64,000 bases of DNA from Clostridia bacterium (GCA_026416815.1 JAOAEJ010000090.1:62486-126485); one strand, 5' to 3'; positions 5,439-64,000 are shown, counted from the first letter of the stretch. The notes: a model not told the origin generated them from the sequence alone. A program made the numbers and translations.

Positions 5439-5457
5439 GACTAATTCCTCCTTTTCA

Positions 5458-5550
5458 AAATGGAAGGCAGAACCGTTTCCCGTTCTACCCGACGGCCTAA
5501 ATCCCATCGCATAATGCATTAGGGCTTAAGGCTCGGAGAATTTATTAAAT
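5458..5550 (-). promoter_or_regulatory. Candidate Moco (molybdenum/tungsten cofactor) riboswitch in the 5' leader of the tungstate transporter operon
   Basis: Minus-strand leader reads UCUCCGAGCCUUAAGCCC...GGCCGUCGGGUAGAACGGGAAACGGUUCUGCCUUCC and runs into the AAGGAGG RBS. It contains CCGAGCC, GGGAAAC and terminal GCCUUCC elements reminiscent of the Moco RNA motif. The placement, upstream of a tup/mod transporter, is typical. The consensus is recalled from memory. Confidence 0.4.
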
Positions 5551-49016: not shown

Positions 49017-49044
49017 ATAATAAATGCAAACAGGGGGTGAGCTT

Positions 49045-49677
49045 GTGTCAAATTTCGGTGAGAGATTGAAGGCTTTAAGAGAGGAAAAAGGCTATAAGCA
49101 GGAAAACATAGCAAAAATACTCGGTGTCAGCAGAGGAGCAATCTCAAAATATGAAAACAATGAAAGAGAACCGGACATAAAGATTATTACTGCCCTTACA
49201 AACCATTTTGAAGTATCTGTAGACTACTTGTTCGGAAAGACAGATATAAGGAGTACGCCGGATTTTATACCTCTAAACATCAAGCTCATTATGGGCGATT
49301 TGAGTGTTGAGGAGTTTATCGCCGAGCTAAGAAAAAAAATTGGTATAACTTTAAAAAAAGAGGATATGGAAAGCTTTATAAAAGGTAGAACAATTCCTTC
49401 CATGGGAATTCTTCAAGCAATTGCCGACTATGCCAATGTTACCCTGGACTTCTTTTTTACCAGGAATACTTCTCAAAGCCTTGAGAAGGAAAAGAACAGC
49501 ATTAAGGAATATTACGCTGCTCTGCCTGATAGGGAAAAGGTTGATCATATTATTAAAAATCGTACCTTTATACGCCTTGCCCTAAAGATATTGGAAAACG
49601 GCCTTGATCTCGAGGACGTAGAAAGACTGCTAGACACTGCCATAAGTATGAAAAGAAATCACAAAGACCCTAAATAA
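49045..49677 (+). CDS. XRE-family HTH transcriptional regulator with a ~140-aa C-terminal domain
   Basis: The ORF track starts at ATG 49024, which sits inside the -10 element. A GTG at 49045 with an upstream GGGGGTGA RBS is the more likely start. HTH: QENIAKILGVSRGAISKYENNER. Confidence 0.65.
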   Translation: MSNFGERLKALREEKGYKQENIAKILGVSRGAISKYENNEREPDIKIITALTNHFEVSVDYLFGKTDIRSTPDFIPLNIKLIMGDLSVEEFIAELRKKIGITLKKEDMESFIKGRTIPSMGILQAIADYANVTLDFFFTRNTSQSLEKEKNSIKEYYAALPDREKVDHIIKNRTFIRLALKILENGLDLEDVERLLDTAISMKRNHKDPK

Positions 49678-49720: not shown

Positions 49721-49843
49721 TTACTTTAAACTCTTAGGCTGTTTTGGCTGGTAGAAAAATAATCCGCTTGCTGAAGCCGTAAATGCCATGGCTGCAAGTG
49801 TCACAATTGTACTTATAATCCCAATTGCCTTAGTTTTTAACAT
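49721..49843 (-). CDS. AgrD-like autoinducing-peptide precursor (40 aa), with Ser in place of the usual Cys; not in the ORF track
   Basis: My translation is MLKTKAIGIISTIVTLAAMAFTASASGLFFYQPKQPKSLK. RBS GAGGGGG lies 7 nt upstream. It parallels C. perfringens AgrD (…ATSACLWFTHQPEEPKSLRDE): an amphipathic leader, a candidate S-G-L-F-F lactone core, and a charged Q-P-x-x-P-K-S-L tail. Confidence 0.45.
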   Translation of the reverse strand: MLKTKAIGIISTIVTLAAMAFTASASGLFFYQPKQPKSLK

Positions 49844-49869
49844 TTAAATACCCCCTCTCTTTGCAGAAG

Positions 49870-50559
49870 TTAGCCCTTCTCTTGTGAAATCATTATTATT
49901 ACCTTACATGCCAGAAAATTGATTAGCGCAAACATAACGCTTGCTATTGAGCATGCAATTCTAAAAGCTGGTGACATTTTGTCAATGTAATGCACAAACG
50001 CGTAAATAAAAGTAACCTCTGCACTGAAAAGCAGGACTGCAAATAACGAGAAGGTATATAATATTTTCTTATTTCTTAAAAGGTTAAAGTACACTATGTC
50101 CCATCTCCATAGAGATACGATTACGATTAACTGTATAATCCTCTCGGGTATGCTGTAAAGAAGCCTGACTATATCATTGGAGAAAAATGTTCCTGCGCTT
50201 TTATTAATAAAGCCGGCAAACTGGTGCACGTATGTGGCTTCTACAGTTATCAAGAATCCATAAATAATTAGGGTGCTTAAAATGGACTCCCGCCACTTCA
50301 ATGTATATACAAACTTTAATATGATTATAAAGAACAGTATATTTGCCAATAGAACAAAAAGCAGATTGGGGAGTACAGCTCTAGCGGTTACTTGTGCTAT
50401 GACTAAAAGGGGTACAGCAATAAAAAGCCGTAATAGATTTAGCTTGTCATCCAGATAAAGCCTGCTCCTCTGGCCTATTAATACGAAACCGAGGTATATA
50501 TCAAGTATTACTTCCGGCATCGATACCGTCAGTATACTAAATAGGCTCATTTTATCCAT
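49870..50559 (-). CDS. Polytopic (~6 TM) membrane protein in the position usually occupied by agrB, but lacking the AgrB His/Cys motif
   Basis: 229 aa. No G.H......C catalytic signature. Function unknown. Confidence 0.45.
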   Translation of the reverse strand: MDKMSLFSILTVSMPEVILDIYLGFVLIGQRSRLYLDDKLNLLRLFIAVPLLVIAQVTARAVLPNLLFVLLANILFFIIILKFVYTLKWRESILSTLIIYGFLITVEATYVHQFAGFINKSAGTFFSNDIVRLLYSIPERIIQLIVIVSLWRWDIVYFNLLRNKKILYTFSLFAVLLFSAEVTFIYAFVHYIDKMSPAFRIACSIASVMFALINFLACKVIIMISQEKG

Positions 50560-50660: not shown

Positions 50661-50726
50661 TAAATACAAAAGGATAGCTCCACCATAGGAACCACCCTCT
50701 TATGATTATTATTGACTTTATCGGAT

Positions 50727-52046
50727 CTATTGATTCATATAATCAGTTACTTCACGGTCTAATGATTTTGCTATCTGCTCCGGTGATTTTCCACCGCTTA
50801 CAAATTGATTTATGTGTTCAAGTAGTATCATATATACCTCATAATCCCAAACTTCATATCTCTCCGCTCTATTGATTATCCTATCTATTTTGTCAACCTG
50901 CTCTTTATCTACACCCTTCGAAAGGGCAGCCTGTTTTTTTGAATCTTCATACACCTTTTTATTTACCGGAATTATAATTTGGTAAAAATCATCCCTCCTT
51001 TGTTGTAACTCCTCCGAGAGCAACAATTTTATGTATTCAAATGCCTCTTTCTTATAAATGCTCTTGGCATTTATAGATACAGTAACAGGCTCTATGACCT
51101 GCACTGATTTCTTAGCGCTATATGTAGGGAAGGCAACAAAGTCCGTTCCCTGTCCCAAACTCCTGGCTGATAAACGATACGCTTCAAAGGGCCCTCCATT
51201 TATAGCTCCGATGTTGTTTATCATTACAGCTACATCATAAGTTAGGAGGTCGTCACCCGTATAACCTAATTCATTTTCCGGGCAAATCGCTCTGTTGATA
51301 TCCCTCTTGAAAGTCTTTAGCATATCTATAAATTCCGGCGAATTGAAGCTAGTCTTTTTATTTTCAAAATCAACGAAATCAACACCGCTATTTTTAAGTA
51401 ATTGTTCAACTCTTATCATCCACCCCGCGAATAGATATCTTGCTCTGTCCTTCACTTTAGGATTATATTCTCTGGCTACTTGCGTAAGATCGTTCCAAGT
51501 CCAGTTTTCGGTGTCTATTTTTATGCCGTTTTTTTTCATTATGTCCTTTGTAGTAGTCATAATGTCAGCCCTGAAGGACAGGGGAACGAAGTATCTCTTA
51601 CCTTTGTAGACACCGCACTCCATTACTTTTTCATTATAATCAGCCATATTGAAGCTCTTATCTGAGGCTATCAGCCCATTTAAGTCTTCAAGTACTCCAC
51701 TCTCCATAGTCTTATATATGGAGTTAAAGCTCGATACAAAGCTGTTACCCATATCCATTATGATGTCCGGGCCTTGCCCCGACATCAATTCGGTTGTCAA
51801 TCTATTCCTAAATTGCTCATAATCTTCGAAGCTTGTCACCTTAATACTTGAGTCCTTATGAGATTCATTATACTTCACTAAGGCTGCTGACGTAAGTACA
51901 TCTTGGTTTTGGGTATACAGCTTCAGTTCAATCTTATGGTCATTCACCTTCTGCTTTTCTGCCTCTTTCACCTTATCCGAGCACCCTGTGCTGCCTATTA
52001 AAAGTACAGCAGTTACAAATAACGGTATAATCTTTCTTACTAACAT
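50727..52046 (-). CDS. ABC-type substrate-binding lipoprotein (family-1 extracellular solute-binding protein), paralog 1
   Basis: Start taken at the internal ATG (MLVRKIIPLFVTAVLLIGSTGCS), giving a lipobox. Paralogous to 62190..63530. Confidence 0.65.
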   Translation of the reverse strand: MLVRKIIPLFVTAVLLIGSTGCSDKVKEAEKQKVNDHKIELKLYTQNQDVLTSAALVKYNESHKDSSIKVTSFEDYEQFRNRLTTELMSGQGPDIIMDMGNSFVSSFNSIYKTMESGVLEDLNGLIASDKSFNMADYNEKVMECGVYKGKRYFVPLSFRADIMTTTKDIMKKNGIKIDTENWTWNDLTQVAREYNPKVKDRARYLFAGWMIRVEQLLKNSGVDFVDFENKKTSFNSPEFIDMLKTFKRDINRAICPENELGYTGDDLLTYDVAVMINNIGAINGGPFEAYRLSARSLGQGTDFVAFPTYSAKKSVQVIEPVTVSINAKSIYKKEAFEYIKLLLSEELQQRRDDFYQIIIPVNKKVYEDSKKQAALSKGVDKEQVDKIDRIINRAERYEVWDYEVYMILLEHINQFVSGGKSPEQIAKSLDREVTDYMNQ

Positions 52047-52106: not shown

Positions 52107-52133
52107 GTCATATGATAACTGCCGTTAGTCATA
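52107..52133 (-). promoter_or_regulatory. GTCATA direct-repeat operator, site S3: two GTCATA copies spaced 21 bp
   Basis: AGTCATATGATAACTGCCGTTAGTCATAAG, about 60 nt upstream of the SBP start. Near-identical to sites at 58182.. and 63588... Confidence 0.6.
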
Positions 52134-52246
52134 AGAAAAGTAATAATATGCAAAAATGCCCAATAAATAAAGCAATAGCACCAGGAGTTAGCCTAGTGCC
52201 GTTTTAGCTTTTTATCTTACTGCGTCTATTTATTTATAAATAGAAT

Positions 52247-53149
52247 CTAAGCGCCTCTTTCAGCAATTTCTTCCGGCACAGCCAATACTATGCGCCCGTC
52301 GTTCAACTCTACCTTGACTTTATTCCTATTTTTAAGCCCCAACGCTTCAATATATTCCCTGGGTATTTGCAGCCGCCCTGACTTATCCAGAACCGCAAGC
52401 TCTACATGAGACTCCTCATCTGCTTCTCCCTTGGTATCTGACGCGATTTCAGCCAACTCTTCGGCATAGGATTTTTTTCTTATAAACTCACTGCTGGTAC
52501 GCCCGTCACGGATTGCCACCACTCTGTCCACCTCTCTGGATAGCTGCCTGTCATGGGTAACAATGATAATGGTAAGCCCTAAGGATTTATTTAGCTCCCT
52601 GAAAATATCCAGTATCAGTGCTGAAGTTTTGGTGTCTACTGCACCGGTGGGTTCGTCAGCTAACAGCAGTTTGGGATTGTTGGCAAGGGCTATTGCTATG
52701 GCAGTTCTCTGCTGCTCGCCCCCTGAAAGCTGGTACAATTTACTGTTTTGCCTGTGGGAAAGCCCTACCATATCTAATAATTCCTTTGCTCTCTCTCTTT
52801 TCGCCTTACCCGATAAAAGCATAGGAAGTTCTACGTTTTCAAGGGCTGTCAGGTAGGGTATGAGATTCCTTGCATTATTCTGCCATACAAAGCCTACTGT
52901 GTCCCGTTTGTAATTTATCAGCTGGGAGTTGGTAAATTTAAAAAGGTCTTTTCCATCTACCATAAGCTTACCTGCTGAGGGCTTATCCAATCCTCCCAGC
53001 ATGTTCAGAAGAGTTGACTTCCCGCTTCCGCTGTTGCCTATTATGCCCATTAATTCGCCTTGCTCTACTACAAGGTCCAGTCCTTGAAGAGCGACTACCT
53101 CTATATCAGCGGTTTTATATATCTTAACAAGATTTTCACAAGTGATCAT
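52247..53149 (-). CDS. MacB/LolD-type ABC ATP-binding protein with a C-terminal AbrB/SpoVT-like swapped-hairpin domain
   Basis: Walker A GNSGSGKST, signature LSGGEQQR. The C-terminal ~60 aa (GRLQIPREYIEALGLKNRNKVKVELNDGRIVL) resembles the AbrB/MazE fold. Confidence 0.7.
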   Translation of the reverse strand: MITCENLVKIYKTADIEVVALQGLDLVVEQGELMGIIGNSGSGKSTLLNMLGGLDKPSAGKLMVDGKDLFKFTNSQLINYKRDTVGFVWQNNARNLIPYLTALENVELPMLLSGKAKRERAKELLDMVGLSHRQNSKLYQLSGGEQQRTAIAIALANNPKLLLADEPTGAVDTKTSALILDIFRELNKSLGLTIIIVTHDRQLSREVDRVVAIRDGRTSSEFIRKKSYAEELAEIASDTKGEADEESHVELAVLDKSGRLQIPREYIEALGLKNRNKVKVELNDGRIVLAVPEEIAERGA

Positions 53150-53210
53150 AATTATGCCTCCTTTAGCTTTAAAGCTGTGGGTAGTTTACTATAACATTGA
53201 AAATACTTTG

Positions 53211-53306
53211 CCACCACCCCTGCCCCTCCTCAAAGGAGCGAAGCTTTTGTTTTGCGGCAAAGCCGCAAGCAGGAGGGCTACACCCCCTGCACCCCCAATT
53301 TAAAGT
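53211..53306 (-). repeat. GC-rich ~60-nt conserved intergenic element, copy 2, between the two ATPase genes
   Basis: TTTTGCGGCAAAGCCGCAAGCAGGAGGGCTACACCCCCTGCACCCCCAATTTAAAGTT matches copy 1. It is preceded by a different, copy-specific hairpin. Confidence 0.6.
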
Positions 53307-53317
53307 TTCATAGTTAA

Positions 53318-54001
53318 CTAACTATGTTCAACTACAACCTGCCCGTCCTGCAAGGCGATTACCCGGTCTGCAAGCTCCATTATATTAGGATCGTGGGATG
53401 TCATCACTATTGTAAGCCCTTCCTTTTCCACCAAATCTCGAAATACCTTCATTACCTGCAGGCCCATATGGGTGTCCAATTCAGCTGTAGGTTCATCAGC
53501 AAAAATTATTCTCGGTTTATGAGCTATTGCCCTTGCAATAGCCACACGCTGCTGTTCACCACCTGAAAGCTCATGGGGACGGTGGTGCATACGTTTTTGA
53601 AGCCCAACAAAGGAGAGGCATTCTTCGGCACGTTCTTTTCTTGCCTTGGTGCTATAGCCTGCTACCCGCAGGCCAAATTCTACATTTTCATAAGCCGACA
53701 TTAGAGATATGAGGGCTACGGCTTGGAATACAAAACCCATCTGCTGCCGCCTCAGCTCGTCACGGCTTGTTTCATTGATACAGGCAATATCTCTGCCGTC
53801 CAGATAAATCTTCCCCGTACTAGGCTTATCAAGCGCCCCCAGCAGATTGAGCAGTGTCGTTTTTCCCGAACCGGAACGCCCCTTTAGGACAGTCAGCGTT
53901 CCGGAATTTATTGATATATTAATATCCCTGAGGGCATACACCGTTTCCCTTCCCGACTGAAATTGGCGGTTTATACCCTCTGTGCTGATTATCGGTATCA
54001 T
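53318..54001 (-). CDS. MacB/LolD-type ABC ATP-binding protein
   Basis: Walker A GRSGSGKTT, signature LSGGEQQR, Walker B IIFADEP. Confidence 0.8.
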   Translation of the reverse strand: MIPIISTEGINRQFQSGRETVYALRDINISINSGTLTVLKGRSGSGKTTLLNLLGALDKPSTGKIYLDGRDIACINETSRDELRRQQMGFVFQAVALISLMSAYENVEFGLRVAGYSTKARKERAEECLSFVGLQKRMHHRPHELSGGEQQRVAIARAIAHKPRIIFADEPTAELDTHMGLQVMKVFRDLVEKEGLTIVMTSHDPNIMELADRVIALQDGQVVVEHS

Positions 54002-54003
54002 AC

Positions 54004-56946
54004 TTATTCCTCCCCTAGCTTGATTGCCTGGTTTATATTAATTCGTGACAGCAGTGTTCTTAATGCCAAAAGCCCTATTATCATAGTAACCGTCACCAGC
54101 AGGTAAACATTCATACGGTCACTTGCAAAGGATACTACCTTAAAAGGTATAACCTGTGTAGAAGCATTAAATGCAATCTGGAAGAAAGGTACAAACAATT
54201 GGCTCGCAACCAAACCAATAATCACACCTATAATTGCTGCTGCACCGGAAGTAAGAGCCTGCTCCCATACCATCATGGAATTCAATTTCCTTACAGACAG
54301 CCCTATAGCACGGAATATACCAAACTGAAGTGTTCTGGCATTTATGGACAAAACCCAGTAAATAAGGAAGCCAAGGAAGCATATCATACCGCTTATAATA
54401 AATCCAAGGGTCAAGGCGCCATTAATGGCAAGGTTAAAGGGGTTATTTTTAAGTTTAATGACTTCCTGCCTTGCATTATCCAATCTCGTCACGCTGATAC
54501 CTTTTTCTTTTATTGTGTTGTAAATTGGCTCACTGCCTGCCTTAGGCTCTAGCTTAAGCCATACATCGTAAGGCTCCAGACGGGAATGATTTCGTATATA
54601 AGGAAGGTTCGCCACTACCAGCTTTGGGTCAGGCATACTAGGATTTAATTCCATATCTTTGTTGGGATTCCATGAAGGCCAGTAGTCCACAATGCCATAC
54701 ACAGTAAAACTTATCTTTTGGTTCTCCTCCCACATAATATGTATATAGTCACCTACCTTAAGCTTGGATGATTCACTCAGCGATTTGGAAATCAGACATG
54801 CGCTTGGCTCCACAGCCAGCAAGTTAATGTATTCATTAATATGGTGAGGCATTAAGCCATCCCTGTACCATACAACGTTTCCAAAGTCGTAAGGCTCTAT
54901 TCCCATCAATCTCGCTCCGGTAGGCCGCTGCCCACCTTCAGATATCACCGTCACATCATCTTTATTAAATACCTTTGCAGCATGCTTTACACCGAGCATT
55001 TGCGTATAAGGTAAAAATGACGGTTCAAAGTAGTTGGGTTTTTTATTAGGAGGAGGCTCTAAAGGTCTACGGGGCTTAACATCAGTTTGCCATAGTGTCT
55101 TAATCACCATATCACTGCCTATCGCATAATTAACTCTCTCCTCTGTATTGCTGTTAATTGTCCTTGCAGCAGTGGAACTAAAAAGTCCTATTGATAAGGT
55201 CATTACCATAAAAATCATTAAGAAATGATAGCTCTCAAGAGACCTTCCCACCTGAATCAAGGTAGCATAGACAGACGGCGGCCATAGCTTTCTCCCTATC
55301 CAATATATAGCTTTCACTATCAAAGGATATAGTCTTAGCGTCACCAGCCCTACACCAAGGATAAACATAGCCGGTACAAAGAACAGCATTGGGTCTATTT
55401 GAATATCTTTAGAGGCTGCCCCGGTAATCTTCATTACCTCCTGCCTCTTGCCAAAGGAATAATAGCCATATAGAGATACTGCAATCAATACCAGGTCAAT
55501 AAAGTACTTTTTCCAGAAGGGTGTAGATTTTTTTCTGGCTATGCTTGTTTTATAGCTTATTATGTTGGTTTTGCTGGCAAGATACGCCGGTATAAGCATG
55601 GTGAGTAATGATAGTCCAGCGGCCACAGCGGCGAAAGCATAGGCATTGGAGCTGACCGCTGCAGGAAGTGATGCTCTGCTGGTGAATTCAAGAAAGCCGT
55701 TTGAAGCTCCAAGAATTTTGCTTATGAGCATGCCTATCCACGGTCCTACAGCGAAAGCAATTCCACCGAGTATCAGACCCTCTATAAAATACCCCAGTAC
55801 AATCTGGAATCGGTTGGCCCCCCGGCTGTTTAGGAGCGCTATCTCATTTTTCTCTCTATCTATGATAAGCTTCGATACCATGAAAAGGTATAGAAAAAGC
55901 ATTATTATTACCGGAATATTTAAAGCCAGAAGTATAACGTTCAACTGATTTTCTTTCAAAAGAAAGTTGTTTATTATATCCATCGATGGAGCTTCTATAT
56001 CTACATTATTTCCTCCGATAATCCTTCTCAATCCCTTTGAAAAGCTCCTGTGCCCTCCCAGCATATCCCCTACACCTATACTATCTATTGCATGATAATC
56101 ATAAGCATACAGCCATTTCATGCTCTGCAGCATTGTAGGCTCCGTATTTATAAAATCCTTTTCCATCAAGCCCTCATCTATAAAAAAGCTTTTATCATAT
56201 ATAGTGGTTCCTGCAAGGGACCAGTACATGTTCTGATCATCCTTTATTGTGAAGACTCCTACAGGCTTAATCTTCACGCCTTCCAATTCCTCATACCTAT
56301 TGTCGATTAAAACGAATACCTCTCCCAGCACCATCCCCAGTTTCTTTAAAGCTTCTTCTGTCACAAGGGCTTCATATACTCCATTTTCAGCCTTATTAGA
56401 AGGTAATTTGCCGTCAAGAAGGTTGATGTTTTTATAGAGGCCACTCATAGATTCAATAGTGGCATATCTGCTCCCCCCTGTAGGACTCGTTTTTTTTGGG
56501 TCTTCGGAGTGCATACGTCTGATATCGGTGGAATAAGTATGGATTTGTTCTATTATCGGCAGTCCCAATCTTTGTTTGATATTCTCCTCTGTGTATTGTC
56601 TTGCTTCATTAACCGTTTTTAGCTTTCCTTTATAAAAATCCAAAACCTTCTCGTTTTTTATTAGTGACTGTTTTCGTGTCTTCAACTCGTATACAGTATT
56701 TGAAATACCGCTATAGTCCATAGATATATTTATCCTGTAGATACCGGGAAAGATATTATTTTCTTGCTGGTAATTCTCCAGGTCTCTTACTATCATCTTC
56801 TGCAAAGCTCCCTGGGTATAAATAGGGATACTACTTACTAATGCAACACAAATCACCAATCCTAGGAGAAGGCATAAAACAAGCCACAGGTTCTTTTTCA
56901 TTTTTCTAAGTATCATTAATAACAAAGCCATTATACCCCTCCTCAA
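54004..56946 (-). CDS. FtsX/MacB-type ABC permease with two FtsX domains and large extracellular loops (980 aa)
   Basis: About 10 TM in two 4-TM FtsX-like blocks, each preceded by a large extracytoplasmic domain. Confidence 0.7.
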   Translation of the reverse strand: MRRGIMALLLMILRKMKKNLWLVLCLLLGLVICVALVSSIPIYTQGALQKMIVRDLENYQQENNIFPGIYRINISMDYSGISNTVYELKTRKQSLIKNEKVLDFYKGKLKTVNEARQYTEENIKQRLGLPIIEQIHTYSTDIRRMHSEDPKKTSPTGGSRYATIESMSGLYKNINLLDGKLPSNKAENGVYEALVTEEALKKLGMVLGEVFVLIDNRYEELEGVKIKPVGVFTIKDDQNMYWSLAGTTIYDKSFFIDEGLMEKDFINTEPTMLQSMKWLYAYDYHAIDSIGVGDMLGGHRSFSKGLRRIIGGNNVDIEAPSMDIINNFLLKENQLNVILLALNIPVIIMLFLYLFMVSKLIIDREKNEIALLNSRGANRFQIVLGYFIEGLILGGIAFAVGPWIGMLISKILGASNGFLEFTSRASLPAAVSSNAYAFAAVAAGLSLLTMLIPAYLASKTNIISYKTSIARKKSTPFWKKYFIDLVLIAVSLYGYYSFGKRQEVMKITGAASKDIQIDPMLFFVPAMFILGVGLVTLRLYPLIVKAIYWIGRKLWPPSVYATLIQVGRSLESYHFLMIFMVMTLSIGLFSSTAARTINSNTEERVNYAIGSDMVIKTLWQTDVKPRRPLEPPPNKKPNYFEPSFLPYTQMLGVKHAAKVFNKDDVTVISEGGQRPTGARLMGIEPYDFGNVVWYRDGLMPHHINEYINLLAVEPSACLISKSLSESSKLKVGDYIHIMWEENQKISFTVYGIVDYWPSWNPNKDMELNPSMPDPKLVVANLPYIRNHSRLEPYDVWLKLEPKAGSEPIYNTIKEKGISVTRLDNARQEVIKLKNNPFNLAINGALTLGFIISGMICFLGFLIYWVLSINARTLQFGIFRAIGLSVRKLNSMMVWEQALTSGAAAIIGVIIGLVASQLFVPFFQIAFNASTQVIPFKVVSFASDRMNVYLLVTVTMIIGLLALRTLLSRININQAIKLGEE

Positions 56947-58136
56947 TTTAGAATTACGTTTTGTCCCTCACTCAAGCCCGATATAATCTCCACTTCCATT
57001 GGAGTTGTTATCCCCTCTTCTACATCAACTTCCCTCTTATTATCCCCTTCTAAAATCTGCACATATTTCTTCTCCAGTATCTGCTTTAGCGCCATTTTTG
57101 GGATTACGATGGTATTGTTCTTGCTCTTTATAGGTATTGAGATAACTATAGGGTCTCCCAGCTTCATTCTCTCCTCTAAGCCTTTAGCGTCTATAACAAT
57201 GGCTCCCTTATATGCTTCACCTGCATCCTCAGGTACATTATCCGGGGATAACACTACTTTTCCGGTATATTTCTTGTTTTCGTATGTAAGTTCCGCCGTC
57301 ATGCCCGTCTTTACTTTACCAACCTCCGCAGTAGGCGGTCTAAAATATATCTGTTTTTGCCTGGTATCAGCTACCCTGACAAGCTCTTTAAAAGCTATAA
57401 CCGTATCACCGTCTCTAATATCCTCTACAAAAACTACCTGTCCGTCCATCGGAGATACAAGCTGTGACTTTTCACGCTCATTTTTCAGCTCTTCAAGGGT
57501 TTCCTGTACATTAATCAAGTCCAGGCGGGCTGATTCCTTCTGCTTACTCATTTGCTCCAGCATTACCTTTGCTTTCTCCACAGCGTACTCCTGCACTGTA
57601 ATACCATTTTTCATTTCACGTATTGGAGGCCTTGAAGCTGCCGGAAGCTTCATAGAGGAGTCATACTCCTCTTTCATATTTTTTAATACCGTCTGCATAC
57701 TCTTTAGATCTATCCTTGCCGCTTCCTCCTGCTTCTCCAACTGTTCCAACTGAATCTGTGCCTTACTTACCATGTACTGCTGCTGTTTGATACGGCTTTC
57801 TATGTCACCTACATCAATTCGCGCCAGTACATCACCTTTTTTGACTACCTGCCCAATCCGAGCATCAACGCTTTTTATTCTTCTTCCTTCCTCTTTAAAA
57901 TACAGTGGAACCGATTTAATCGGTATTGCCTCTCCAGATCCTTTCACAGAATCCACGATGTCCCGCTTAGCAACCTTATAAAGCTCATATTTTTGCCTCT
58001 TAGGCTGTATAAGCGGCGGCGCCAGCGGCTTTTCTTCCTTTGGAAGCACCCCGCATCCGCTCATCAATCCCATTCCAACAGCTATAACACTTGCCACCCC
58101 TAATGTCCTGAAGCTTATTTTCTTATTCATTGACAT
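56943..58136 (-). CDS. HlyD/MacA-family periplasmic adaptor (membrane-fusion) protein
   Basis: Lipoprotein-like N-terminus (LMSGCG), coiled-coil hairpin and a beta-barrel C-terminus. Overlaps the permease gene by 4 nt. Confidence 0.75.
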   Translation of the reverse strand: MSMNKKISFRTLGVASVIAVGMGLMSGCGVLPKEEKPLAPPLIQPKRQKYELYKVAKRDIVDSVKGSGEAIPIKSVPLYFKEEGRRIKSVDARIGQVVKKGDVLARIDVGDIESRIKQQQYMVSKAQIQLEQLEKQEEAARIDLKSMQTVLKNMKEEYDSSMKLPAASRPPIREMKNGITVQEYAVEKAKVMLEQMSKQKESARLDLINVQETLEELKNEREKSQLVSPMDGQVVFVEDIRDGDTVIAFKELVRVADTRQKQIYFRPPTAEVGKVKTGMTAELTYENKKYTGKVVLSPDNVPEDAGEAYKGAIVIDAKGLEERMKLGDPIVISIPIKSKNNTIVIPKMALKQILEKKYVQILEGDNKREVDVEEGITTPMEVEIISGLSEGQNVILN

Positions 58137-58169
58137 CCCCCCTGTATGTTTCTCTATATGGTAAAATTA

Positions 58170-58224
58170 TCATATATGACGGTCATATGATAAGTAGCGC
58201 AGGTCATAAATAAAGTCATATATG
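58170..58224 (-). promoter_or_regulatory. GTCATA direct-repeat operator, site S1, upstream of the HlyD-permease-ATPase operon
   Basis: GTCATATGATAAGTAGCGCAGGTCATAAATAAAGTCATATATG. GTCATA copies at 58182, 58203 (+21) and 58215 (+12), plus an inverted copy at 58170..58180. Confidence 0.65.
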
Positions 58225-58730
58225 TTTAACTTCAGTACATTAGGAACAAAAAAGTAAAAGTAGTTAAAAAAAGTGCTGCAAGCCTTTTTTCATTTCTATA
58301 CACTTCCCATATTAGTAATAAGCGGCTCACATTCCAGCATTTAAAAAAGGTGCGGAAATACTTTAGTTTCTTATACTTTAGTTGGATAATTATGATATAC
58401 TTAATATAGGAAGATCAATATATATCCTATGGGAATGCCTAACTGTAGTAAGTAATGTAACCTATCAATGCATTCTCAAGCTGTCTGTATAAAAAGTGAT
58501 GGGTGGTGGTGATGCTATTTCTTATACCGCCGTTATAAATTGAGCGGTAATTCAGAATCTTGTGTATCTGCATACTATTGCACAGCTGTACGCCACACAA
58601 AATGCCTGCCTTTGTCTGCAATGTGATTACTGTCTATTAACATTTTGCAAGTGAACCCAGATTTGCATAATCATGTAAAATTTTCATAGGCGAAATCCCT
58701 ATAGCTTAAAGGGCTTCAGTATTTTAGACT

Positions 58731-58838
58731 AATGCCTCGTAACGTAATTTTTTTGTTAAGGTATGCAGAGCAATACTAATCAAGGAAGTGTATTTTTAAC
58801 ATTAGTAATGAATAGAAATTTGTAATGTTAAAAAACGC
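58731..58838 (+). repeat. Family 1 double-hairpin element, diverged copy C, upstream of the 1,071-aa secreted-protein gene
   Basis: The second hairpin AAGGAAGTGTATTTTTAACATT...TTGTAATGTTAAAAAACGC is nearly identical to copy A. The first hairpin has diverged. Confidence 0.6.
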
Positions 58839-58875
58839 TAGATAGTTTTTGTTATTTCGGGAGGTGTTTAAAAGT

Positions 58876-61800
58876 ATGTTACTAAAATCAGAGAGACTTA
58901 AAAAGAAGATTAGCCTCTTTCTAGCCTTTGTTTTTTTAGCATTTGTCTGTTTCGGTGTTCCTACGTCATATACCCTATCATCTTCTGTCTTTCCTCAATT
59001 AGGCCCATTGAGGATACTTGAGGTAGAGCCGGGAACTACTTTTGACATTACAAGCAACATGAAATCGTCGCTGGAAACCTATTTTGGCAGAACGATAGAA
59101 CTTACACAAATGCCCATGCCCTTGTTTATTTCAAAGGTGGAGCAGGTTAACGGATATTATGACATCGTATACATAGGCAACAATCAAACCGGCGCGGATG
59201 GAAACCAGAATATATACGGGGGAGACAAATATAGCCAATTTGGACCCAGTAAAAAACTCAACGGTACTGATTTGCCAAATGTTAACCTGGCAAGAACTGT
59301 GGCAAACAACAAGGAATTTTACAGCGGTAATGATATTACAAACAAAACTGCTGCGAACCTAAAAAGCTTTATTAACTCCAACCAGCTGGTTGTTTTTGAC
59401 TCAGGCATTTTTACCTCTGCTATGCAAAAAACAAAGCTTTATACCAATTTCAACGCATATCAGGGAAGAGCCAATGTAAAGGTAGGCACCACTTCAACAT
59501 TGCTGAACAATCTAAAGGCCTATAGTAATAGTGCAATATTGAAAAGGCCTGCGCTTCAGCTTACCAGCAGCCCGGTGCAATACGACGGTACCAATATTGA
59601 CGCAAATGGGGAACTTCTCAGCTTTGCTATGAATCTTAAAAACATGAACAGCGATGACCTGATGACTGTCAATCTATTCATTGATAAGAATGGGGATGGC
59701 ATATACAAGGATTCAGAGATGGTACGTCAATATAACAATGTAGGAGAGACTAACGGATATACTATCAATTATCTCATTCCTTCAGGCTTTACCGGCGTTG
59801 TCCCATGGAAGCTTGAGATAACTGATAAGTTTGGCGTCAAATCCTATAAGACAGGTTTTACAGCCTATAAAGGAACCGAACTAAGAATCAGAGTTCTGCA
59901 GCTTTTGTCCGATAGGACCACTTCTACCTTAAACTTATCAAGTCTCAGCAATTATAATAATAACGGACAGCGCTTGAATCTGTTATATAAGCCCGGTGAA
60001 TATAAAGTAGAAGTCACCGAAATGAATATTAGAGAATTTAACAATAATTACGGTTCTTTGGTGAACGGAAAGCCTACAACCTTAAACGGCAACTACGATA
60101 TGGTTATTTTCGGTTTCGATGATTCATATATCGGTGACCTTAGCGGAAGGGCATTAAGTGACGTGGTTGCCTTTGCGGATTCCAAACAAAGTATCATGTT
60201 TACTCACGATACCATTGGCTACCAAAGTACAAATCACAATTTAACCAATGCATTCAGAAACCGTTTGGGCCTTAATGCATTTGCAACAGACCCGTCACTG
60301 CCTACAGGCATTACTGCTTCTACCGGTATAACCAGAATTGTACTATACGTCTCAAGCAGCTACCGGGACCCATATGGATTTCCCAATACCATACTGACTC
60401 GCAAAATCAACCAAAGCAACCTCACAATGTATCCCTATGTTTTAGGTGATATCACAGTGTCCCCTACCCATGTACAGTATTTGCGGCTGGATATGGAAGA
60501 CCCGGATGTGGCGACTGCATTTACTTACAAAAATGAAAAAAAATATAGCAATGGATTCAGGACTGCTAACCTGATAACGCCGGTTCAGCAGGAGACAATA
60601 TACCACGACTACGACGCAGCGAATGACTATTATACCTTCTTCAAGGGAAACCTGACATTTTCAGGTACAGGTCATAGTAATATTACATCTCTTGACGAAT
60701 TGAAAATGTTCGTCAATACTATCATTAAGGCTTCAACCGGCTCCAACCATGCTCCTACAGTGGAGATAAAAGATTTAAGCGATAATCAGGATATTGCCAA
60801 TACTCTGCAAAACCTGAATTTTTCGATTGTTGCTTCTGACTATGAGGATGCTAAGTTGAAAGGGCAGATATATATCGACCTCAACGGTAATGGCAACTAC
60901 GAGGAAGCTCCGGCGGCAACTTTCGACGGAGACGATTCGCTGCTTAGCGGTGTTGAAAAAGCTGTTTCGTTAGCAAAGAGTGTACCAAACTCTGTTACAA
61001 GGTTTGGAATCAAGGTAGTAGCCACTGACTCCCAGAATGCCCAGGGTGTTTGTGTTATAAATATCAATAACAAGAATACACCAACGCTCACCTTAAATAC
61101 CAATGCAAGCAATTGCCTTCTGGGCGATACAGCAAACATTGACCTAAATGTTAGTGCTCAGCCTACCACCTTGAATACCAGATATAGAAATATATCGCTA
61201 AGAATGACTCTTGACACCGATGCTTTCAGTTCCATTAACGCCAGTGGATGGACATCAACGGGTAACGGTAACTATTCTAAGAGTCTGCAAGATGTAATAT
61301 TTGCTCCACAGCCCAACATCACCACTCAAAGCAGCAGCATTAACTTTGTATGCAGCAGGGTCGGCACACATACAGTTAACGCCAATGTATCGTATACCGA
61401 TGGATACGGAAATGCCGTTACCTCAAATGGCAATTTCACTTTGGGGGTAAGATCTGGTGAAGTGAATGCCGAGATAAAAGATGCATTTGGGCAGAGTGTC
61501 GGCAGCCTTCCGGTTATATTGAATAGCACTACTCCTAACAGTGGATTTGTTCCACTCACTATAGCTACCGACAGTACAGGTGTTGCAAAGTTCAACAATA
61601 TACCGACAGGCTATTATGGAGCTACCGTACAACTCCCTGCCGGTTATACAGCTTTAGGCATAGGGAGCGGAAATAGGAGCCTGTCAGTGATGGCTGATGG
61701 CATTTTGCACTATGATAATAGTACAAGAGTAATTTCATTCCCCGAGCTTTACCCACTTGTCAGCCTTAGTATTCAGGGCAGCAACAGTGTCGGAGTATGG

Positions 61801-62064
61801 GAGAGCATTAGGTATACTTCTACAGTTAATGCAGATACTTATAAAAATCATCCTGAATTGGTAGGACCTGTAGTGTGGAGCGTTATTCCTGGTTCAGGCA
61901 ATGGTACTATTAATAGCTCCACAGGGGGCTTTACAGCTACAAGACCCGGGGATGTAACTATCGTTGCTACAAGGAAACTTAAGGATAAATATGGCCATGA
62001 GCTTCCAGACGGATTTCGAGGTGAGAAAAGGGTAACTATTTCAAACATTATAGATATAAACTAA
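58876..62064 (+). CDS. Large secreted protein (1,062 aa from this start) with a C-terminal Big_2-like Ig domain; function unknown
   Basis: Start placed at ATG 58876 (MLLKSERLKKKISLFLAFVFLAFV...), with GGGAGGTG 9 nt upstream. Signal peptide present. No dockerin or SLH motif seen. Confidence 0.65.
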   Translation: MLLKSERLKKKISLFLAFVFLAFVCFGVPTSYTLSSSVFPQLGPLRILEVEPGTTFDITSNMKSSLETYFGRTIELTQMPMPLFISKVEQVNGYYDIVYIGNNQTGADGNQNIYGGDKYSQFGPSKKLNGTDLPNVNLARTVANNKEFYSGNDITNKTAANLKSFINSNQLVVFDSGIFTSAMQKTKLYTNFNAYQGRANVKVGTTSTLLNNLKAYSNSAILKRPALQLTSSPVQYDGTNIDANGELLSFAMNLKNMNSDDLMTVNLFIDKNGDGIYKDSEMVRQYNNVGETNGYTINYLIPSGFTGVVPWKLEITDKFGVKSYKTGFTAYKGTELRIRVLQLLSDRTTSTLNLSSLSNYNNNGQRLNLLYKPGEYKVEVTEMNIREFNNNYGSLVNGKPTTLNGNYDMVIFGFDDSYIGDLSGRALSDVVAFADSKQSIMFTHDTIGYQSTNHNLTNAFRNRLGLNAFATDPSLPTGITASTGITRIVLYVSSSYRDPYGFPNTILTRKINQSNLTMYPYVLGDITVSPTHVQYLRLDMEDPDVATAFTYKNEKKYSNGFRTANLITPVQQETIYHDYDAANDYYTFFKGNLTFSGTGHSNITSLDELKMFVNTIIKASTGSNHAPTVEIKDLSDNQDIANTLQNLNFSIVASDYEDAKLKGQIYIDLNGNGNYEEAPAATFDGDDSLLSGVEKAVSLAKSVPNSVTRFGIKVVATDSQNAQGVCVININNKNTPTLTLNTNASNCLLGDTANIDLNVSAQPTTLNTRYRNISLRMTLDTDAFSSINASGWTSTGNGNYSKSLQDVIFAPQPNITTQSSSINFVCSRVGTHTVNANVSYTDGYGNAVTSNGNFTLGVRSGEVNAEIKDAFGQSVGSLPVILNSTTPNSGFVPLTIATDSTGVAKFNNIPTGYYGATVQLPAGYTALGIGSGNRSLSVMADGILHYDNSTRVISFPELYPLVSLSIQGSNSVGVWESIRYTSTVNADTYKNHPELVGPVVWSVIPGSGNGTINSSTGGFTATRPGDVTIVATRKLKDKYGHELPDGFRGEKRVTISNIIDIN

Positions 62065-62101
62065 AATCACCCGATTTAAAGATAATAAGTAAGAATCATT
62101 A

Positions 62102-62155
62102 CAGGGAGTTGAGTGCCCTAATCAAGGCGCTCAACTCCCTGTTGTTATTTTTATT
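62102..62155. terminator. Bidirectional terminator between convergent genes
   Basis: CAGGGAGTTGAGTGCC...GCGCTCAACTCCCTG followed by a T-run. Confidence 0.75.
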
Positions 62156-62189
62156 ATAGCATGAGCCATCTGCAGCTTCCAGTGGTCAT

Positions 62190-63530
62190 CTAATCTTTAA
62201 GATATTGAACAATAATTTCATCCAATTCCTTAGCTGTCTGCTCTGCTGATTTACCGCCCCTCGAAAACTCATCTAACTTCTCGTCCACGATTTTATGAAT
62301 CTCCCTATCCCACACCTCATACTTTTCAGTATCTTCAATAATTTTATCCAACTGGTTAATTATATTGGAGTATTTAATTTTTGTTGAACCTCCGAATCGA
62401 GGTTTTTCCTTTATATTTTTATAAGCCTGTTTATTTACTTGTATTCTTATACCTGAGTAATTTTGTATTTCATCTGATAGTAAAAGCTTTATGTAATCAA
62501 AGGCTTCTTTTGTAAATTTACATTTTGAATTTACAGCTACAATTATTGGTTGAATTACGTAAGACTCTCTTTTTGAGTTATATGTAGGGTAAGGATAAAC
62601 TTTTGCACGTCCTTCTACAAAGTTATTGATACTTTCCAGACACTCTACATACCTACCAGATTGTTGCATTTCATAAGGATCTGCAAACAGTACAAGGTTT
62701 TCCAACGTTGCCTTACCAAACGTAGTATAGGAAAAGCTAACATCTTGATTCTTATTTATTACATCTCCAGTAACAGTTTCAGGTTTAAAAACACTCTTAT
62801 ATGTATTGAGCATTTGTATAAATTCAGGTGAATTAAACCTAGTCTTCTTTTCCTCAAAATCTATAAGTGATTCACCACAATTTTTTACTAGCTGATTTAA
62901 TGTTACCCTATCATTAAAAATGTAGTTGGCTTTACCTTGCTTATTCATATTACGTTTTCTTATAATCTCCAAAACGCTATACCATGTCAAACTGTCCCCC
63001 TCTATCTTTACATTGTTTTTATCAAGCATATAGTCAACAGCCCCAATAATGTCTAGTGAATAGGATATAGGTATAAAGTATCTTTTACCCTTATATACCC
63101 CGGAGTCCATCACCTTCTCATTGTAGTCTGACAATTTGAAGCTTTCATCCTTAGATATAAGTTCATTTAAATCCATCAGTATTCCACTTTCCATAGCTTT
63201 ATGTATGGAAGGAAAATTCTCTGCACTACTTACTATGATATCTGGACCTTTCCCGGAAAAAAGCTCTGAGATAAGTCTGTCGCTGAACTCATTATCTATG
63301 CTAAAGCTTGTCACATTTATAGTCCTATCAGGATACTTCTCTTTGTATTTCTTTACAGCCACAGTATTAACCATATCGCTGTCGGTTTTATAGAGTGTCA
63401 GCACAGCCTTCTCACTCGCTTGATAGCCCTTATCCTTATTGTCCTTCTCTTTAGAACACGCAGCACTACTTCCAGCCAAAACCGTACACATTAATAAAAT
63501 AGCAGCAGCTTTACGTATTAACATAATCAA
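62190..63530 (-). CDS. ABC-type substrate-binding lipoprotein, paralog 2
   Basis: Lipobox LAGSSAAC. Collinear similarity to 50727..52046. Confidence 0.65.
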   Translation of the reverse strand: MIMLIRKAAAILLMCTVLAGSSAACSKEKDNKDKGYQASEKAVLTLYKTDSDMVNTVAVKKYKEKYPDRTINVTSFSIDNEFSDRLISELFSGKGPDIIVSSAENFPSIHKAMESGILMDLNELISKDESFKLSDYNEKVMDSGVYKGKRYFIPISYSLDIIGAVDYMLDKNNVKIEGDSLTWYSVLEIIRKRNMNKQGKANYIFNDRVTLNQLVKNCGESLIDFEEKKTRFNSPEFIQMLNTYKSVFKPETVTGDVINKNQDVSFSYTTFGKATLENLVLFADPYEMQQSGRYVECLESINNFVEGRAKVYPYPTYNSKRESYVIQPIIVAVNSKCKFTKEAFDYIKLLLSDEIQNYSGIRIQVNKQAYKNIKEKPRFGGSTKIKYSNIINQLDKIIEDTEKYEVWDREIHKIVDEKLDEFSRGGKSAEQTAKELDEIIVQYLKD

Positions 63531-63587
63531 CCATCCCCTTTAAACTTTATTCATATCATTTATGGGCTAATACTATCATAGTTAGGA

Positions 63588-63630
63588 GTCATATGATAAG
63601 TAGCCTTAGTCATAAGTATAGTCATATCAC
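63588..63630 (-). promoter_or_regulatory. GTCATA direct-repeat operator, site S2
   Basis: GTCATATGATAAGTAGCCTTAGTCATAAGTATAGTCATATCAC. GTCATA copies at 63588, 63609 (+21) and 63621 (+12). A TATGAT -10-like hexamer follows toward the gene. Confidence 0.65.
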
Positions 63631-63690: not shown

Positions 63691-64000
63691 TTATTTTGCT
63701 TTGCTTAATCCCTGCAAATACTCCATCAGCTTTACAGGATTGACTACTTTTCTTAGCCTATACTTGTAGTTTACATTAGTATTCACAACTTCAACTATAT
63801 CACTGGTTGCTAGGACTCCCTCGAAGAAAACCTCCTGCGTAAGATTGGGCTTTACCTTACATCCAAGGGCATATAATCCTGCTGCATATGCTGCCGGGAA
63901 CATCCGATCTCCTATAGAGTAAAAGGCATAGTCATCCTGCCCTGTGGGGCTGGCAACACATCTTGAGTCCATGGGAAGAAGTAAAGTTTCTTTTGCAAAG
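63691..64000 (-). CDS. Hypothetical protein, C-terminal part only; the gene continues beyond the window end
   Basis: The frame stays open upstream of the annotated Met (…FAKETLLLPMDSR…) with no stop before the window edge. Confidence 0.4.
   Translation of the reverse strand, partial: FAKETLLLPMDSRCVASPTGQDDYAFYSIGDRMFPAAYAAGLYALGCKVKPNLTQEVFFEGVLATSDIVEVVNTNVNYKYRLRKVVNPVKLMEYLQGLSKAK

Follow-up and report, generated by a model that had tools for sequence, protein, structure and literature searches.

The closest described relatives of the regulatory sites considered here are the operators of DesR-type response regulators. The published DesR operator is an inverted repeat, ATGACA-N2-TGTCAT, and that of RR11 is ATGACATTTGTCAT-N7-AGTGACA, with offsets of 8 and 22 (PMC11034029). 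DesR-type activation involves two dimer sites, both of which are required (PMC4251995), and promoters located beside DesK-like systems contain three binding regions, organized as an inverted repeat plus a direct repeat (PMC7726353). In the 64-kb stretch of DNA analyzed here (hereafter, the window), three sites share the half-site ATGAC with the published DesR and RR11 operators and, judged by half-site sequence together with layout, match operators of the DesR type (NarL/FixJ family).

The motif GTCATATGATAANTRSCNNWRGTCATAA is found on the plus strand at positions 52107, 58182 and 63588 and nowhere else in the window, even with up to 3 mismatches allowed; 0.00 occurrences of the 28-nt pattern are expected in 64 kb (100 dinucleotide shuffles), against the 3 observed. 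When scored with a weight matrix built from the sites of other genomes alone, the three sites, denoted S1, S2 and S3, reached 36.4, 42.7 and 40.5 bits, respectively, compared with 6.2 bits for the best non-operator position in the window and a shuffle maximum of 11.3 bits. No further promoter with the operator block was detected by the matrix scan of the 64-kb window. The three near-identical motifs reported in an earlier, sequence-only reading of this DNA are, accordingly, real.

All three operators are on the minus strand and share one geometry, with element R0 at -12, RA at 0, an inverted RB at +8, and RC at +21. Operator S3 (63588..63627), in the SBP2 promoter, reads ATATGAC-tatac-TTATGAC-taag-GCTAC-TTATCA-TATGAC in gene orientation and comprises R0 (63621-63627), RA (63609-63615), a degenerate RB position (63600-63604), the -35-like TTATCA (63594-63599), and RC (63588-63593). 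Operator S2 (58182..58221), in the promoter of the MFP-permease-ATPase-ATPase operon, comprises R0 (58215-58221), RA (58203-58209), the RB position (GCTAC, 58194-58198), TTATCA (58188-58193), and RC (58182-58187). Operator S1 (52107..52146), in the SBP1 promoter, has a degenerate R0 (TTATTAC, 52140-52146), RA (52128-52134), a degenerate RB position (GCAGT, 52119-52123), TTATCA (52113-52118), and RC (52107-52112). The spacing of 21 and 12 bp between GTCATA repeats holds as originally described (63588/63609/63621 and 58182/58203/58215). The SBP1 site, previously delimited as 52107..52133, begins where claimed but extends to 52146, with a degenerate third repeat, GTAATA, at 52140.

TATGAC is perfect at RA and RC in all three sites and also at R0 in S2 and S3. 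The RB position is occupied by GCTAC (S2 and S3) or GCAGT (S1), as opposed to GTCAC, and the window sites look like 3 or 4 direct repeats; the DesR inverted repeat ATGACA-N2-TGTCAT (that is, ATGAC-N4-GTCAT) is not intact in any of them. We therefore regard the window sites, on sequence grounds, as a variant of the DesR-type operator plan in which RB is degenerate. The distance between RA and RC in DesR-type operators accounts for the 21-bp spacing that had suggested a LytTR-type regulator. Conservation among the three upstream regions is confined to the ~40-nt block and a -10-like element, whereas the flanks diverge, and SBP1 and SBP2 are only 39% identical; hence, the block does not stem from a recent duplication.

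The predicted targets of these operators are two solute-binding proteins and an exporter, all encoded on the minus strand. SBP2 (62190..63524; identical to MCX7923772.1) is a 444-aa family-1 solute-binding lipoprotein (Pfam SBP_bac_1) with the lipobox SAAC. The exporter operon starts with an HlyD/YknX-type membrane-fusion lipoprotein (MFP; 56943..58136; Pfam HlyD_3 and HlyD_D23; NCBIfam RND_mfp; lipobox MSGC), followed by a 980-aa FtsX/MacB-type permease (54004..56946; MacB_PCD and FtsX domains), which has a full-length identity of 41% with the 949-aa permease encoded at a related locus, L125. Next are ABC ATPase 1 (53318..54001; 227 aa; MacB/DevA/LolD-like; 66% identical to its L125 counterpart) and ABC ATPase 2 (52247..53149; 300 aa; identical to MCX7923767.1), which has an AbrB/MazE-like C-terminal domain. 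ATPase 2 is the final gene of this conserved four-gene exporter module, the order of which is also found in L125-L127, and a terminator-like hairpin comes next (52177-52200). SBP1 (50727..52046), a monocistronic 439-aa family-1 solute-binding lipoprotein (SBP_bac_1; lipobox present) of the same length as P0002 / MCX7923766.1, is likewise followed by a terminator-like hairpin (50666-50703). The gene content given in the sequence-only reading stands: the HlyD-type MFP, the 980-aa FtsX/MacB_PCD permease, the two ABC ATPases, the two SBP_bac_1 lipoproteins, and a 1071-aa DUF5057 protein are all encoded here. Genuine shared operators link SBP2, the exporter operon and SBP1 into the small regulon that it proposed, but the DUF5057 protein, which it had included among the regulated genes, lacks a site.

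The three operators overlap the -35 region of the SBP2, MFP-FtsX-ATPase-ATPase, and SBP1 promoters, and the promoter-proximal end of the site is separated from the ATG by 46 nt (MFP, 58136), 61 nt (SBP1, 52046), or 64 nt (SBP2, 63524). A promoter scan based on consensus matches took TTATCA for the -35 hexamer in two operators, namely, S2 (TTATCA-16-GATAAT, 58193 to 58166) and S1 (TTATCA-17-TATTAT with TG, 52118 to 52090). The SBP2 promoter contains an extended -10-like element, TGaTAGTAT (63570..63578, minus strand), which was read from the sequence 12 nt downstream of RC and scores under the 9/12 threshold of the scan. Both here and in related loci, RC is followed at 12-13 nt by the pattern TGnTAnnnT. 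The sites are thus predicted to cover the -35 region of sigma-A-type promoters, which is the position of an activator.

A genome-wide scan with the pattern GTCATATGATAA-N9-GTCATA yielded 118 loci, of which 54 are coding matches inside beta-ketoacyl synthase genes and were used as controls. A REC+GerE regulator is encoded within 8 kb of 36 of the 64 non-coding loci and of one of the 54 controls, and a HisKA_3 kinase within the same distance of 36 of the 64 and of none of the controls (Fisher p about 1e-11); these domains were confirmed by Pfam for representatives. The regulator is invariably on the strand to which the motif points (36/36). The other 28 non-coding loci have no two-component system within 8 kb, some being cut by contig ends and some probably representing chance matches. 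The cross-genome consensus, which is conditioned on the 18 bases fixed in the scan pattern, is ATGAC-N4-GTCAC-N8-TGAC, with offsets of 8 and 21; RA and RC are 21 bp apart in each of the three window sites and in 40 related sites, and RB is intact (GTCAC or GTAAC) in most of the latter. As negative controls, loci that lack such a two-component system but contain S8-family genes or the exporter module score at most 1 bit.

All 36 regulators have in common the DesR-like (GTVKNYIS) recognition helix GT[VAT]KNY[ILVMT]S.IY.K; the respective helix is GTVRNYISMILEK in DesR (4LDZ) and KTVKTHVSNILAK in LiaR. By overall sequence, the best solved match of these regulators is LiaR/VraR (E 1e-39), with DesR behind (1e-30); among solved kinases, a match spanning the DHp domain is given by DesK entries only. 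We consider it likely that the three sites are operators of one NarL/FixJ regulator with a LuxR-type HTH, DesR-like in DNA recognition and paired with a polytopic HisKA_3 kinase, the genes for both being located beyond base 64000.

The original proposal, a LytTR-type regulator (AgrA/ComE/BlpR/PlnC-like) that answers a secreted peptide pheromone and acts on the 21-bp direct repeats, now appears very improbable. Two 6-7-bp repeats in direct orientation, 21 bp apart, would suit such a protein, and a 40-aa ORF after a polytopic membrane ORF (49721-50559, minus strand) resembles an AgrBD layout. However, the LytTR plan consists of two 9-bp imperfect direct repeats with 12-13-bp spacers, which the additional 12-bp repeat and the palindromic TCATATGA do not fit, and the half-site ATGAC belongs to DesR and does not correspond to a LytTR consensus. 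The motif in 36 other genomes is flanked by GerE-type, not LytTR, regulators. No LytTR, AgrB or AgrD domain was detected in the 52 window ORFs scanned (at least 100 aa), nor, at E up to 5, in the 40-aa ORF and its membrane partner. The "AgrD-like peptide" of the sequence-only reading probably corresponds to this 40-aa ORF (49721-49843, minus strand), which comes after the 229-aa membrane ORF; neither is assigned to AgrD or AgrB by Pfam or NCBIfam, and the pair, with its own promoter-like sites, lies past the terminator that follows SBP1 and has no operator. Given the DesR-type half-site and layout (PMC11034029, PMC7726353), along with the cross-genome co-occurrence of the motif with HisKA_3 and REC+GerE proteins and the lack of a LytTR, AgrB or AgrD domain in the window ORFs scanned, the LytTR/AgrA assignment is not supported.

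Very little weight can be given to an OmpR/PhoB-family regulator acting on the GTCATA repeats, exemplified by the protein encoded at 10538-11239 (minus strand) next to its kinase (9142-10551, minus strand). Although no other complete two-component system is encoded in the window, OmpR-family proteins recognize direct repeats in tandem, and GTCATA is similar to the E. coli pho-box half-site (CTGTCAT), the system is 40 kb distant, the spacings of 12 and 21 bp depart from the 10-11-bp periodicity of the family, and no winged-helix regulator is tied to the motif in other genomes, where the neighbor is always of the GerE type. It is also highly unlikely that the regulator is the product of a neighboring gene, either ATPase 2, through its AbrB/MazE-like C-terminus (transporter self-regulation), or the 217-aa XRE protein (49024-49677), which has a strong HTH_3 domain. 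The weak SpoVT/AbrB-type match of ATPase 2 is backed by homologs, many of which, at 75-85% identity, have PF04014 recorded, but the AbrB-like C-terminus claimed for the window protein itself scores 19.8 bits, below the cut-off of 24.7. Against regulation by either protein, L125-L127 encode the exporter module with the same ATPase and have no operator (best matrix score, -0.6 bits), and dozens of motif loci lack both ATPase 2 and XRE proteins; moreover, AbrB-type domains are not known to perform this kind of sequence-specific repeat recognition. Finally, it is extremely unlikely that the block is shared only as promoter core (-35 plus spacer), through inheritance or convergence, and lacks a dedicated regulator, because, even if TTATCA can act as a -35 hexamer and some of the conservation could be promoter signal, the repeated TATGAC units are conserved 30 nt upstream of that hexamer, the same units are kept at the same offsets in other phylum-level lineages beside one regulator family, and the block is in no other window promoter.

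A DesR-like regulator with a HisKA_3 kinase thus remains the preferred reading, and the very end of the window indicates where the two genes might be found. Positions 63691..64000 (minus strand) contain the 3' end (102 codons) of a gene that leaves the window. Its product matches the C-termini of lipoproteins encoded after the kinase and regulator (HK-RR) in L055, L025, L028, L062 and L101 at 46-54% identity (E 5e-24 to 9e-35), and that of the L124 lipoprotein at 54%; it has Met at the catalytic Ser221 position. It is identified as the C-terminal part of a subtilisin-like lipoprotein that is catalytically dead (pseudoprotease). Such a lipoprotein is encoded after HK-RR and before an operator and an SBP gene in L025, L055, L062, L028, L119 and L124, and in relatives the pseudoprotease gene comes third in the kinase-regulator operon. 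From this kinase-regulator-lipoprotein synteny, the cognate system is predicted just beyond base 64000, its regulator and kinase genes probably falling a short way outside the window.

In the proposed circuit, the kinase, regulator and pseudoprotease genes would, by synteny, form one operon. Activation of the kinase would lead to the binding of phosphorylated regulator dimers to two sites, one distal (R0/RA plus a weak RB) and one proximal (TTATCA-TATGAC, RC). The occupied sites would span about -25 to -65 in promoters with a good extended -10 and a poor -35; the bound regulator would recruit RNA polymerase, as DesR does at Pdes, and SBP2, the MFP-FtsX-ATPase-ATPase exporter operon and SBP1 would be turned on together. 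Binding of the regulator to the three sites is inferred, and activation, as opposed to repression, is suggested by analogy and by the weak -35 element. Positive autoregulation is likely, given that the kinase operon has an operator in front of it in L028, L101 and L124; the four operators of L124 precede this operon, the permease operon and two SBP genes. A compound acting on the membrane or envelope is the probable signal, or else a peptide sensed via the accessory lipoprotein. The circuit is of a known kind, in an uncharacterized three-component variant.

More tentatively, and with considerable doubt, the pseudoprotease lipoprotein could be the extracellular receptor, most plausibly for a peptide, of a DesK-like intramembrane kinase, and the SBPs and the MacB-type exporter could constitute an immunity module through which a ribosomal peptide is sensed, sequestered and exported. 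This possibility is suggested by L119 and L124, where a CcpM-type radical-SAM Cys-rich peptide cluster immediately precedes the HK-RR-pseudoprotease-SBP block. The system may, then, be linked to a peptide signal after all, on the basis of these two related loci, unlike the argument of the sequence-only reading.

These findings turn an anonymous repeat into a testable circuit: the regulator family is named, its genes are predicted to be the next three on the contig, four half-site positions are available to mutate, and the local regulon is delimited to three promoters. The DesK/DesR-type theme of a two-component system beside an ABC transporter, so far known from Bacilli and streptococci, extends to Clostridia and other lineages, in which the operator is conserved and the genes recur in three arrangements; one of these features a pseudoprotease lipoprotein as the likely co-sensor and solute-binding proteins as constant targets. 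If the co-sensor binds a peptide, this would be a new coupling of peptide recognition to an intramembrane kinase.

Compared with known systems, the sites resemble LytTR operators (AgrA P2/P3, ComE, BlpR, PlnC) in having ~21-bp direct repeats just upstream of or over the -35 and in their association with export and peptide-related genes, but differ in regulator family, repeat sequence and repeat length, as well as in the extra 12-bp-spaced repeat and the palindromic proximal element; neither the window nor any related locus examined encodes a LytTR protein. The three-component envelope-stress systems LiaFSR and VraTSR likewise have operons that encode an accessory protein along with a NarL-type regulator and an intramembrane-sensing HisKA_3 kinase, and likely positive autoregulation is a further parallel, but the accessory protein here would be a subtilisin-fold lipoprotein, not LiaF or VraT, and the recognition helix and operator half-site differ from those of LiaR/VraR (PMC11034029). 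Overall, regulators of the present type are about equally distant from DesR and LiaR/VraR. Among the DesK-like systems beside ABC transporters (YvfTU-yvfRS, SA1313/1314, BA5598/5597, and S. pneumoniae TCS11), the RR11 motif of TCS11 has matching half-site offsets (8 and 22 vs 8 and 21 here; PMC11034029). Those systems control one ABC-2 type transporter operon, whereas three separate promoters are involved here, with a tripartite MacB-type exporter and two orphan solute-binding lipoproteins among the targets, and the present lineage has an accessory pseudoprotease. DesK-DesR and the des promoter of Bacillus subtilis share with the predicted system a polytopic HisKA_3 kinase with a NarL-family regulator, the half-site ATGAC(A), distal and proximal dimer sites over the -35 region, and the helix GTV(R/K)NYIS (PMC4251995, PMC11034029). 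The differences are a target other than a desaturase, the degeneracy of the inverted half-site in the window sites, the additional direct repeat that these carry upstream at 12 bp from RA, and a third, extracytoplasmic lipoprotein component that the present system appears to include.

The block GTCATATGATAANTRSCNNWRGTCATAA was found by pattern search of the 64-kb window at 52107, 58182 and 63588 on the plus strand and nowhere else, even when up to three mismatches were allowed (shuffle expectation 0.00). All three sites precede genes on the minus strand: S1 (52107) lies before the solute-binding lipoprotein gene SBP1 (50727-52046; MCX7923766.1), S3 (63588) before SBP2 (62190-63524; MCX7923772.1), and S2 (58182) before an exporter operon consisting of genes for an HlyD/YknX-type membrane-fusion protein (MFP; 56943-58136), an FtsX/MacB permease (54004-56946), ATPase 1 (53318-54001) and ATPase 2 (52247-53149; MCX7923767.1). 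Terminator-like hairpins after ATPase 2 (52177-52200), SBP1 (50666-50703) and DUF5057/SBP2 (62101-62142) delimit three transcription units. When the three upstream regions were aligned, conservation was restricted to an approximately 40-nt block and a -10-like element; because SBP1 and SBP2 are merely 39% identical, this block is kept by selection and is not a recent copy.

A weight matrix built exclusively from sites of other genomes assigned 42.7 bits to S2, 40.5 to S3 and 36.4 to S1, compared with 6.2 bits for the runner-up window position, an overlapping register, and a maximum of 11.3 bits over 20 shuffles. These scores and the null shuffle expectation bear out the claim of the sequence-only reading that the three operons share sites, and the small co-regulated regulon that it proposed, comprising SBP1, SBP2 and the exporter operon, is judged right. 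The same reading had counted the 1071-aa DUF5057 protein (58849-62064, plus strand), encoded divergently from the exporter operon, among the controlled products; this part is not supported, there being no site in its upstream region (about 700 nt; 58225-58848). Rfam gave no match in that region, and no small ORF there was convincing. The matrix scan of the window detected no sites for the XRE gene or the AgrBD-like gene pair either, Rfam yielded no matches in the operator region, and searching the literature for the motif as written brought up nothing but cloning primers with NdeI sites.

In the gene direction, S3 reads ATATGAC-tatac-TTATGAC-taag-GCTAC-TTATCA-TATGAC, S2 reads ATATGAC-tttat-TTATGAC-ctgc-GCTAC-TTATCA-TATGAC, and S1 reads TTATTAC-ttttc-TTATGAC-taac-GGCAG-TTATCA-TATGAC. 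We denote the elements R0, RA, RB and RC, with offsets from RA of -12, 0, +8 (RB being inverted) and +21. RB is degenerate in the window sites, and R0, an extra upstream repeat that is also present in many relatives, is well conserved; judging from these elements, the sites are a variant of the DesR-type operator whose defining inverted repeat is not intact. In the promoter scan, TTATCA was taken as the -35 hexamer at S2 and S1, with the -10 hexamer 16-17 nt downstream, and an extended -10 element, TGnTAnnnT, follows RC by 12-13 nt in each of the three sites as well as in relatives. On these promoters, whose -35 element is poor, the sites would thus span about -25 to -65, the position of an activator, and by analogy the regulator would activate transcription from them.

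Species-representative genomes were scanned for GTCATATGATAA-N9-GTCATA, a pattern that fixes 18 bases, resulting in at least 118 loci. Among the matches listed, 54 were coding and fell on the ..ADAYHMT.. motif within beta-ketoacyl synthase genes; these were used as the control set for linkage counts. Such beta-ketoacyl-ACP synthase matches, which come from Bacteroidota and cyanobacteria (L004, L009, L011, L012, L015 and about 50 more; L-numbers denote loci from other genomes), make up about half of the exact 18-base matches listed, showing that a conserved coding motif can pass for an operator pattern in database scans. The 64 remaining loci among the matches listed are mostly intergenic, belong to Clostridia, other Bacillota, Paenibacillus, a Chloroflexota and a Sumerlaeota genome, and share the consensus GTCATATGATAAGTGACnnnnGTCATAtnnnnGTCATAt, which is conditioned on the 18-base search pattern.

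Among the matches listed, each taken as an 8-kb locus, a REC+GerE response regulator is encoded in 36 of the 64 non-coding loci vs 1 of the 54 controls, and a HisKA_3 kinase in 36 vs none (Fisher p ~1e-11 for the regulator/kinase linkage); 28 of the 64 lack a two-component system within the 8 kb. In the 36 regulator-containing loci listed, the regulator is invariably encoded on the strand to which the motif points, and all 36 of these proteins carry the recognition helix GT[VAT]KNY[ILVMT]S.IY.K. The corresponding helices are GTVRNYISMILEK in DesR (the sequence used was checked as identical to PDB 4LDZ), KTVKTHVSNILAK in LiaR and RTVEKYVSSLLRK in the single control-locus regulator among the matches listed.

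Three arrangements of the kinase-regulator gene pair (HK-RR) recur. In the first, HK-RR is followed after 65-150 nt by the operator and by the gene for a small PLDc_N membrane protein, together with those for an ABC ATPase and an ABC-2 permease. In the second, the operator precedes a gene for a 258-261-aa membrane protein and HK-RR; we read this protein as a CPBP-type protease, an identity that Pfam did not confirm. In the third, HK-RR and a lipoprotein gene are followed by the operator and one or more SBP genes, or else the operator lies upstream of HK-RR-lipoprotein. The kinase of the third arrangement has five to six hydrophobic segments within its first 160 residues, and its sole solved-structure match across the DHp domain is DesK. 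One operator subclass has R0 = ATTACC and RB = GTAAC (L014, L024, L052, L057, L063, L068, L069, L080, L081, L088, L098 and L103); here, within the 60 nt next to the motif, the -10 hexamer TATACT is followed after 4-5 nt by the ATG of a short ORF (MVKPEA.., MEKPE..), which hints at a transcript with no leader, or a very short one, in front of the PLDc_N/ABC operon.

The linkage to one regulator family across genomes, together with the negative controls, contradicts four other explanations of the sites. Binding by a LytTR regulator, the class assigned in the sequence-only reading from the 21-bp repeat spacing, is not supported: the window ORFs scanned gave no hit to a LytTR, AgrB or AgrD domain. 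The AgrD-like peptide gene invoked by that reading is likely the 40-aa ORF MLKTKAIGIISTIVTLAAMAFTASASGLFFYQPKQPKSLK (49721-49843, minus strand), which follows a 229-aa polytopic membrane ORF. The layout of this pair (49721-50559, minus strand) resembles AgrB-AgrD; it lies past a terminator and has promoter-like sites of its own, and the AgrB/AgrD identity of both ORFs was rejected because Pfam and NCBIfam models gave no support, even at E <=5. A distant OmpR-type regulator would be supplied by the only complete two-component system of the window, located 40 kb from the sites, and a local DNA-binding protein by the AbrB-like tail of ATPase 2 or by the XRE protein; the same linkage and controls contradict both. 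The remaining alternative, that the block is a plain shared promoter core, accommodates the -35-like hexamer and is contradicted likewise.

The DesR-like system linked to these operators is predicted to be encoded immediately beyond the window. The last window ORF (63691-64000, minus strand), which runs off the end, encodes the C-terminal part of the third-arrangement lipoprotein (46-54% identity at six loci, E 5e-24 to 9e-35), and the order lipoprotein-operator-SBP is exactly that of L025, L055, L062, L028, L119 (Ruminiclostridium herbifermentans CP061336) and L124, where the lipoprotein gene follows HK-RR. L124 has four operators, before the kinase operon, two SBP genes and a BPD_transp_1 permease operon. 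Because the numbering of MCX7923766.1, MCX7923767.1 and MCX7923772.1 fits the gene order, MCX7923773-775 are predicted to be the lipoprotein, regulator and kinase.

This lipoprotein has a subtilisin fold without the catalytic His64 and Ser221 and the oxyanion Asn155 (Met takes the place of Ser221 in the window fragment), and is probably a pseudoenzyme co-sensor; genuine S8 proteases of adjoining clusters retain the triad. The pseudoprotease is encoded at L119 10001-11224 and L124 8001-9245, and also at L025, L055, L062, L028 and L101. The S8 family as a whole is no marker of the system, because relatives from Fusibacter, C. tunisiense and C. omnivorum have neither the two-component system nor an operator; the window's own S8-like protein was not among the best 120 homologs of the L055 protein. 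A CcpM-type radical-SAM Cys-rich peptide cluster stands immediately ahead of the block at L119 and L124 but not at L028 and L101. This CLI_3235-family cluster (L119 2600-7912; L124 1-5995, with TIGR04065/04066/04068/04069 all above cut-offs), located upstream of HK-RR-pseudoprotease-SBP, encodes a precursor, a maturase, a TIGR04066 protein, an ACP-like protein, an S8 protease and an ABC exporter. Its S8 protease was rejected as the parent of the pseudoprotease, there being no significant similarity. Obvious candidates for the signal would be a stress on the membrane or envelope, or a peptide perceived through the pseudoprotease.

Across relatives, the predicted targets that stay constant are family-1 SBP lipoproteins, in many cases accompanied by BPD_transp_1 permeases. 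The conserved four-gene exporter module (YknX/HlyD-type MFP, 950-980-aa FtsX permease, ATPase, and second ATPase with an AbrB/MazE-like tail) also occurs in one Eubacteriales genome, with 32%, 41%, 66% and 76% identity, respectively, to the window proteins, and there it has no adjoining two-component system or operator (best matrix score -0.6 bits); evidently, it was wired into the regulon in the lineage of the window. L119 and L124 have HlyD-type genes whose orthology to the window MFP was rejected (no match at 1e-5). The tailed ATPase (52247-53149, minus strand; L125 6001-6903), always the fourth gene of the module, shows 75-85% identity among many Clostridia and is far better conserved than its neighbors. 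No solved ABC ATPase matches ATPase 2 past residue 238 of 300, so that its C-terminal tail is without a solved counterpart.

Elsewhere in the window, a molybdenum/tungsten cofactor (Moco) riboswitch (5432-5550, minus strand, 77 bits) lies upstream of a PBP_like_2/BPD_transp_1/ABC_tran transporter, near MoeA and aldehyde ferredoxin oxidoreductase. Because this riboswitch extends over the 5' end of the longest ORF called for the binding protein, that gene probably starts further downstream.

Among characterized systems, the DesR motif is ATGACA-N2-TGTCAT and that of S. pneumoniae RR11 is ATGACATTTGTCAT-N7-AGTGACA (PMC11034029). In the consensus ATGAC-N4-GTCAC-N8-TGAC, the half-sites are offset by 8 and 21, compared with 8 and 22 in RR11, and the proximal element of the operators described here, TaTCAT|ATGAC, contains these half-sites back to back. 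Given these offsets, the 21-bp spacing of the sequence-only reading is the one that separates RA from RC in a DesR-type operator. Pdes contains a high-affinity distal and a lower-affinity proximal site, each bound by one DesR dimer, and its activation requires dimer-dimer contact of DesR (PMC4251995). By sequence, the circuit is of a familiar type, in which a DesK-like two-component system, here predicted, controls transporter genes through a DesR-type operator; the window circuit is an uncharacterized three-component variant with multiple operators.
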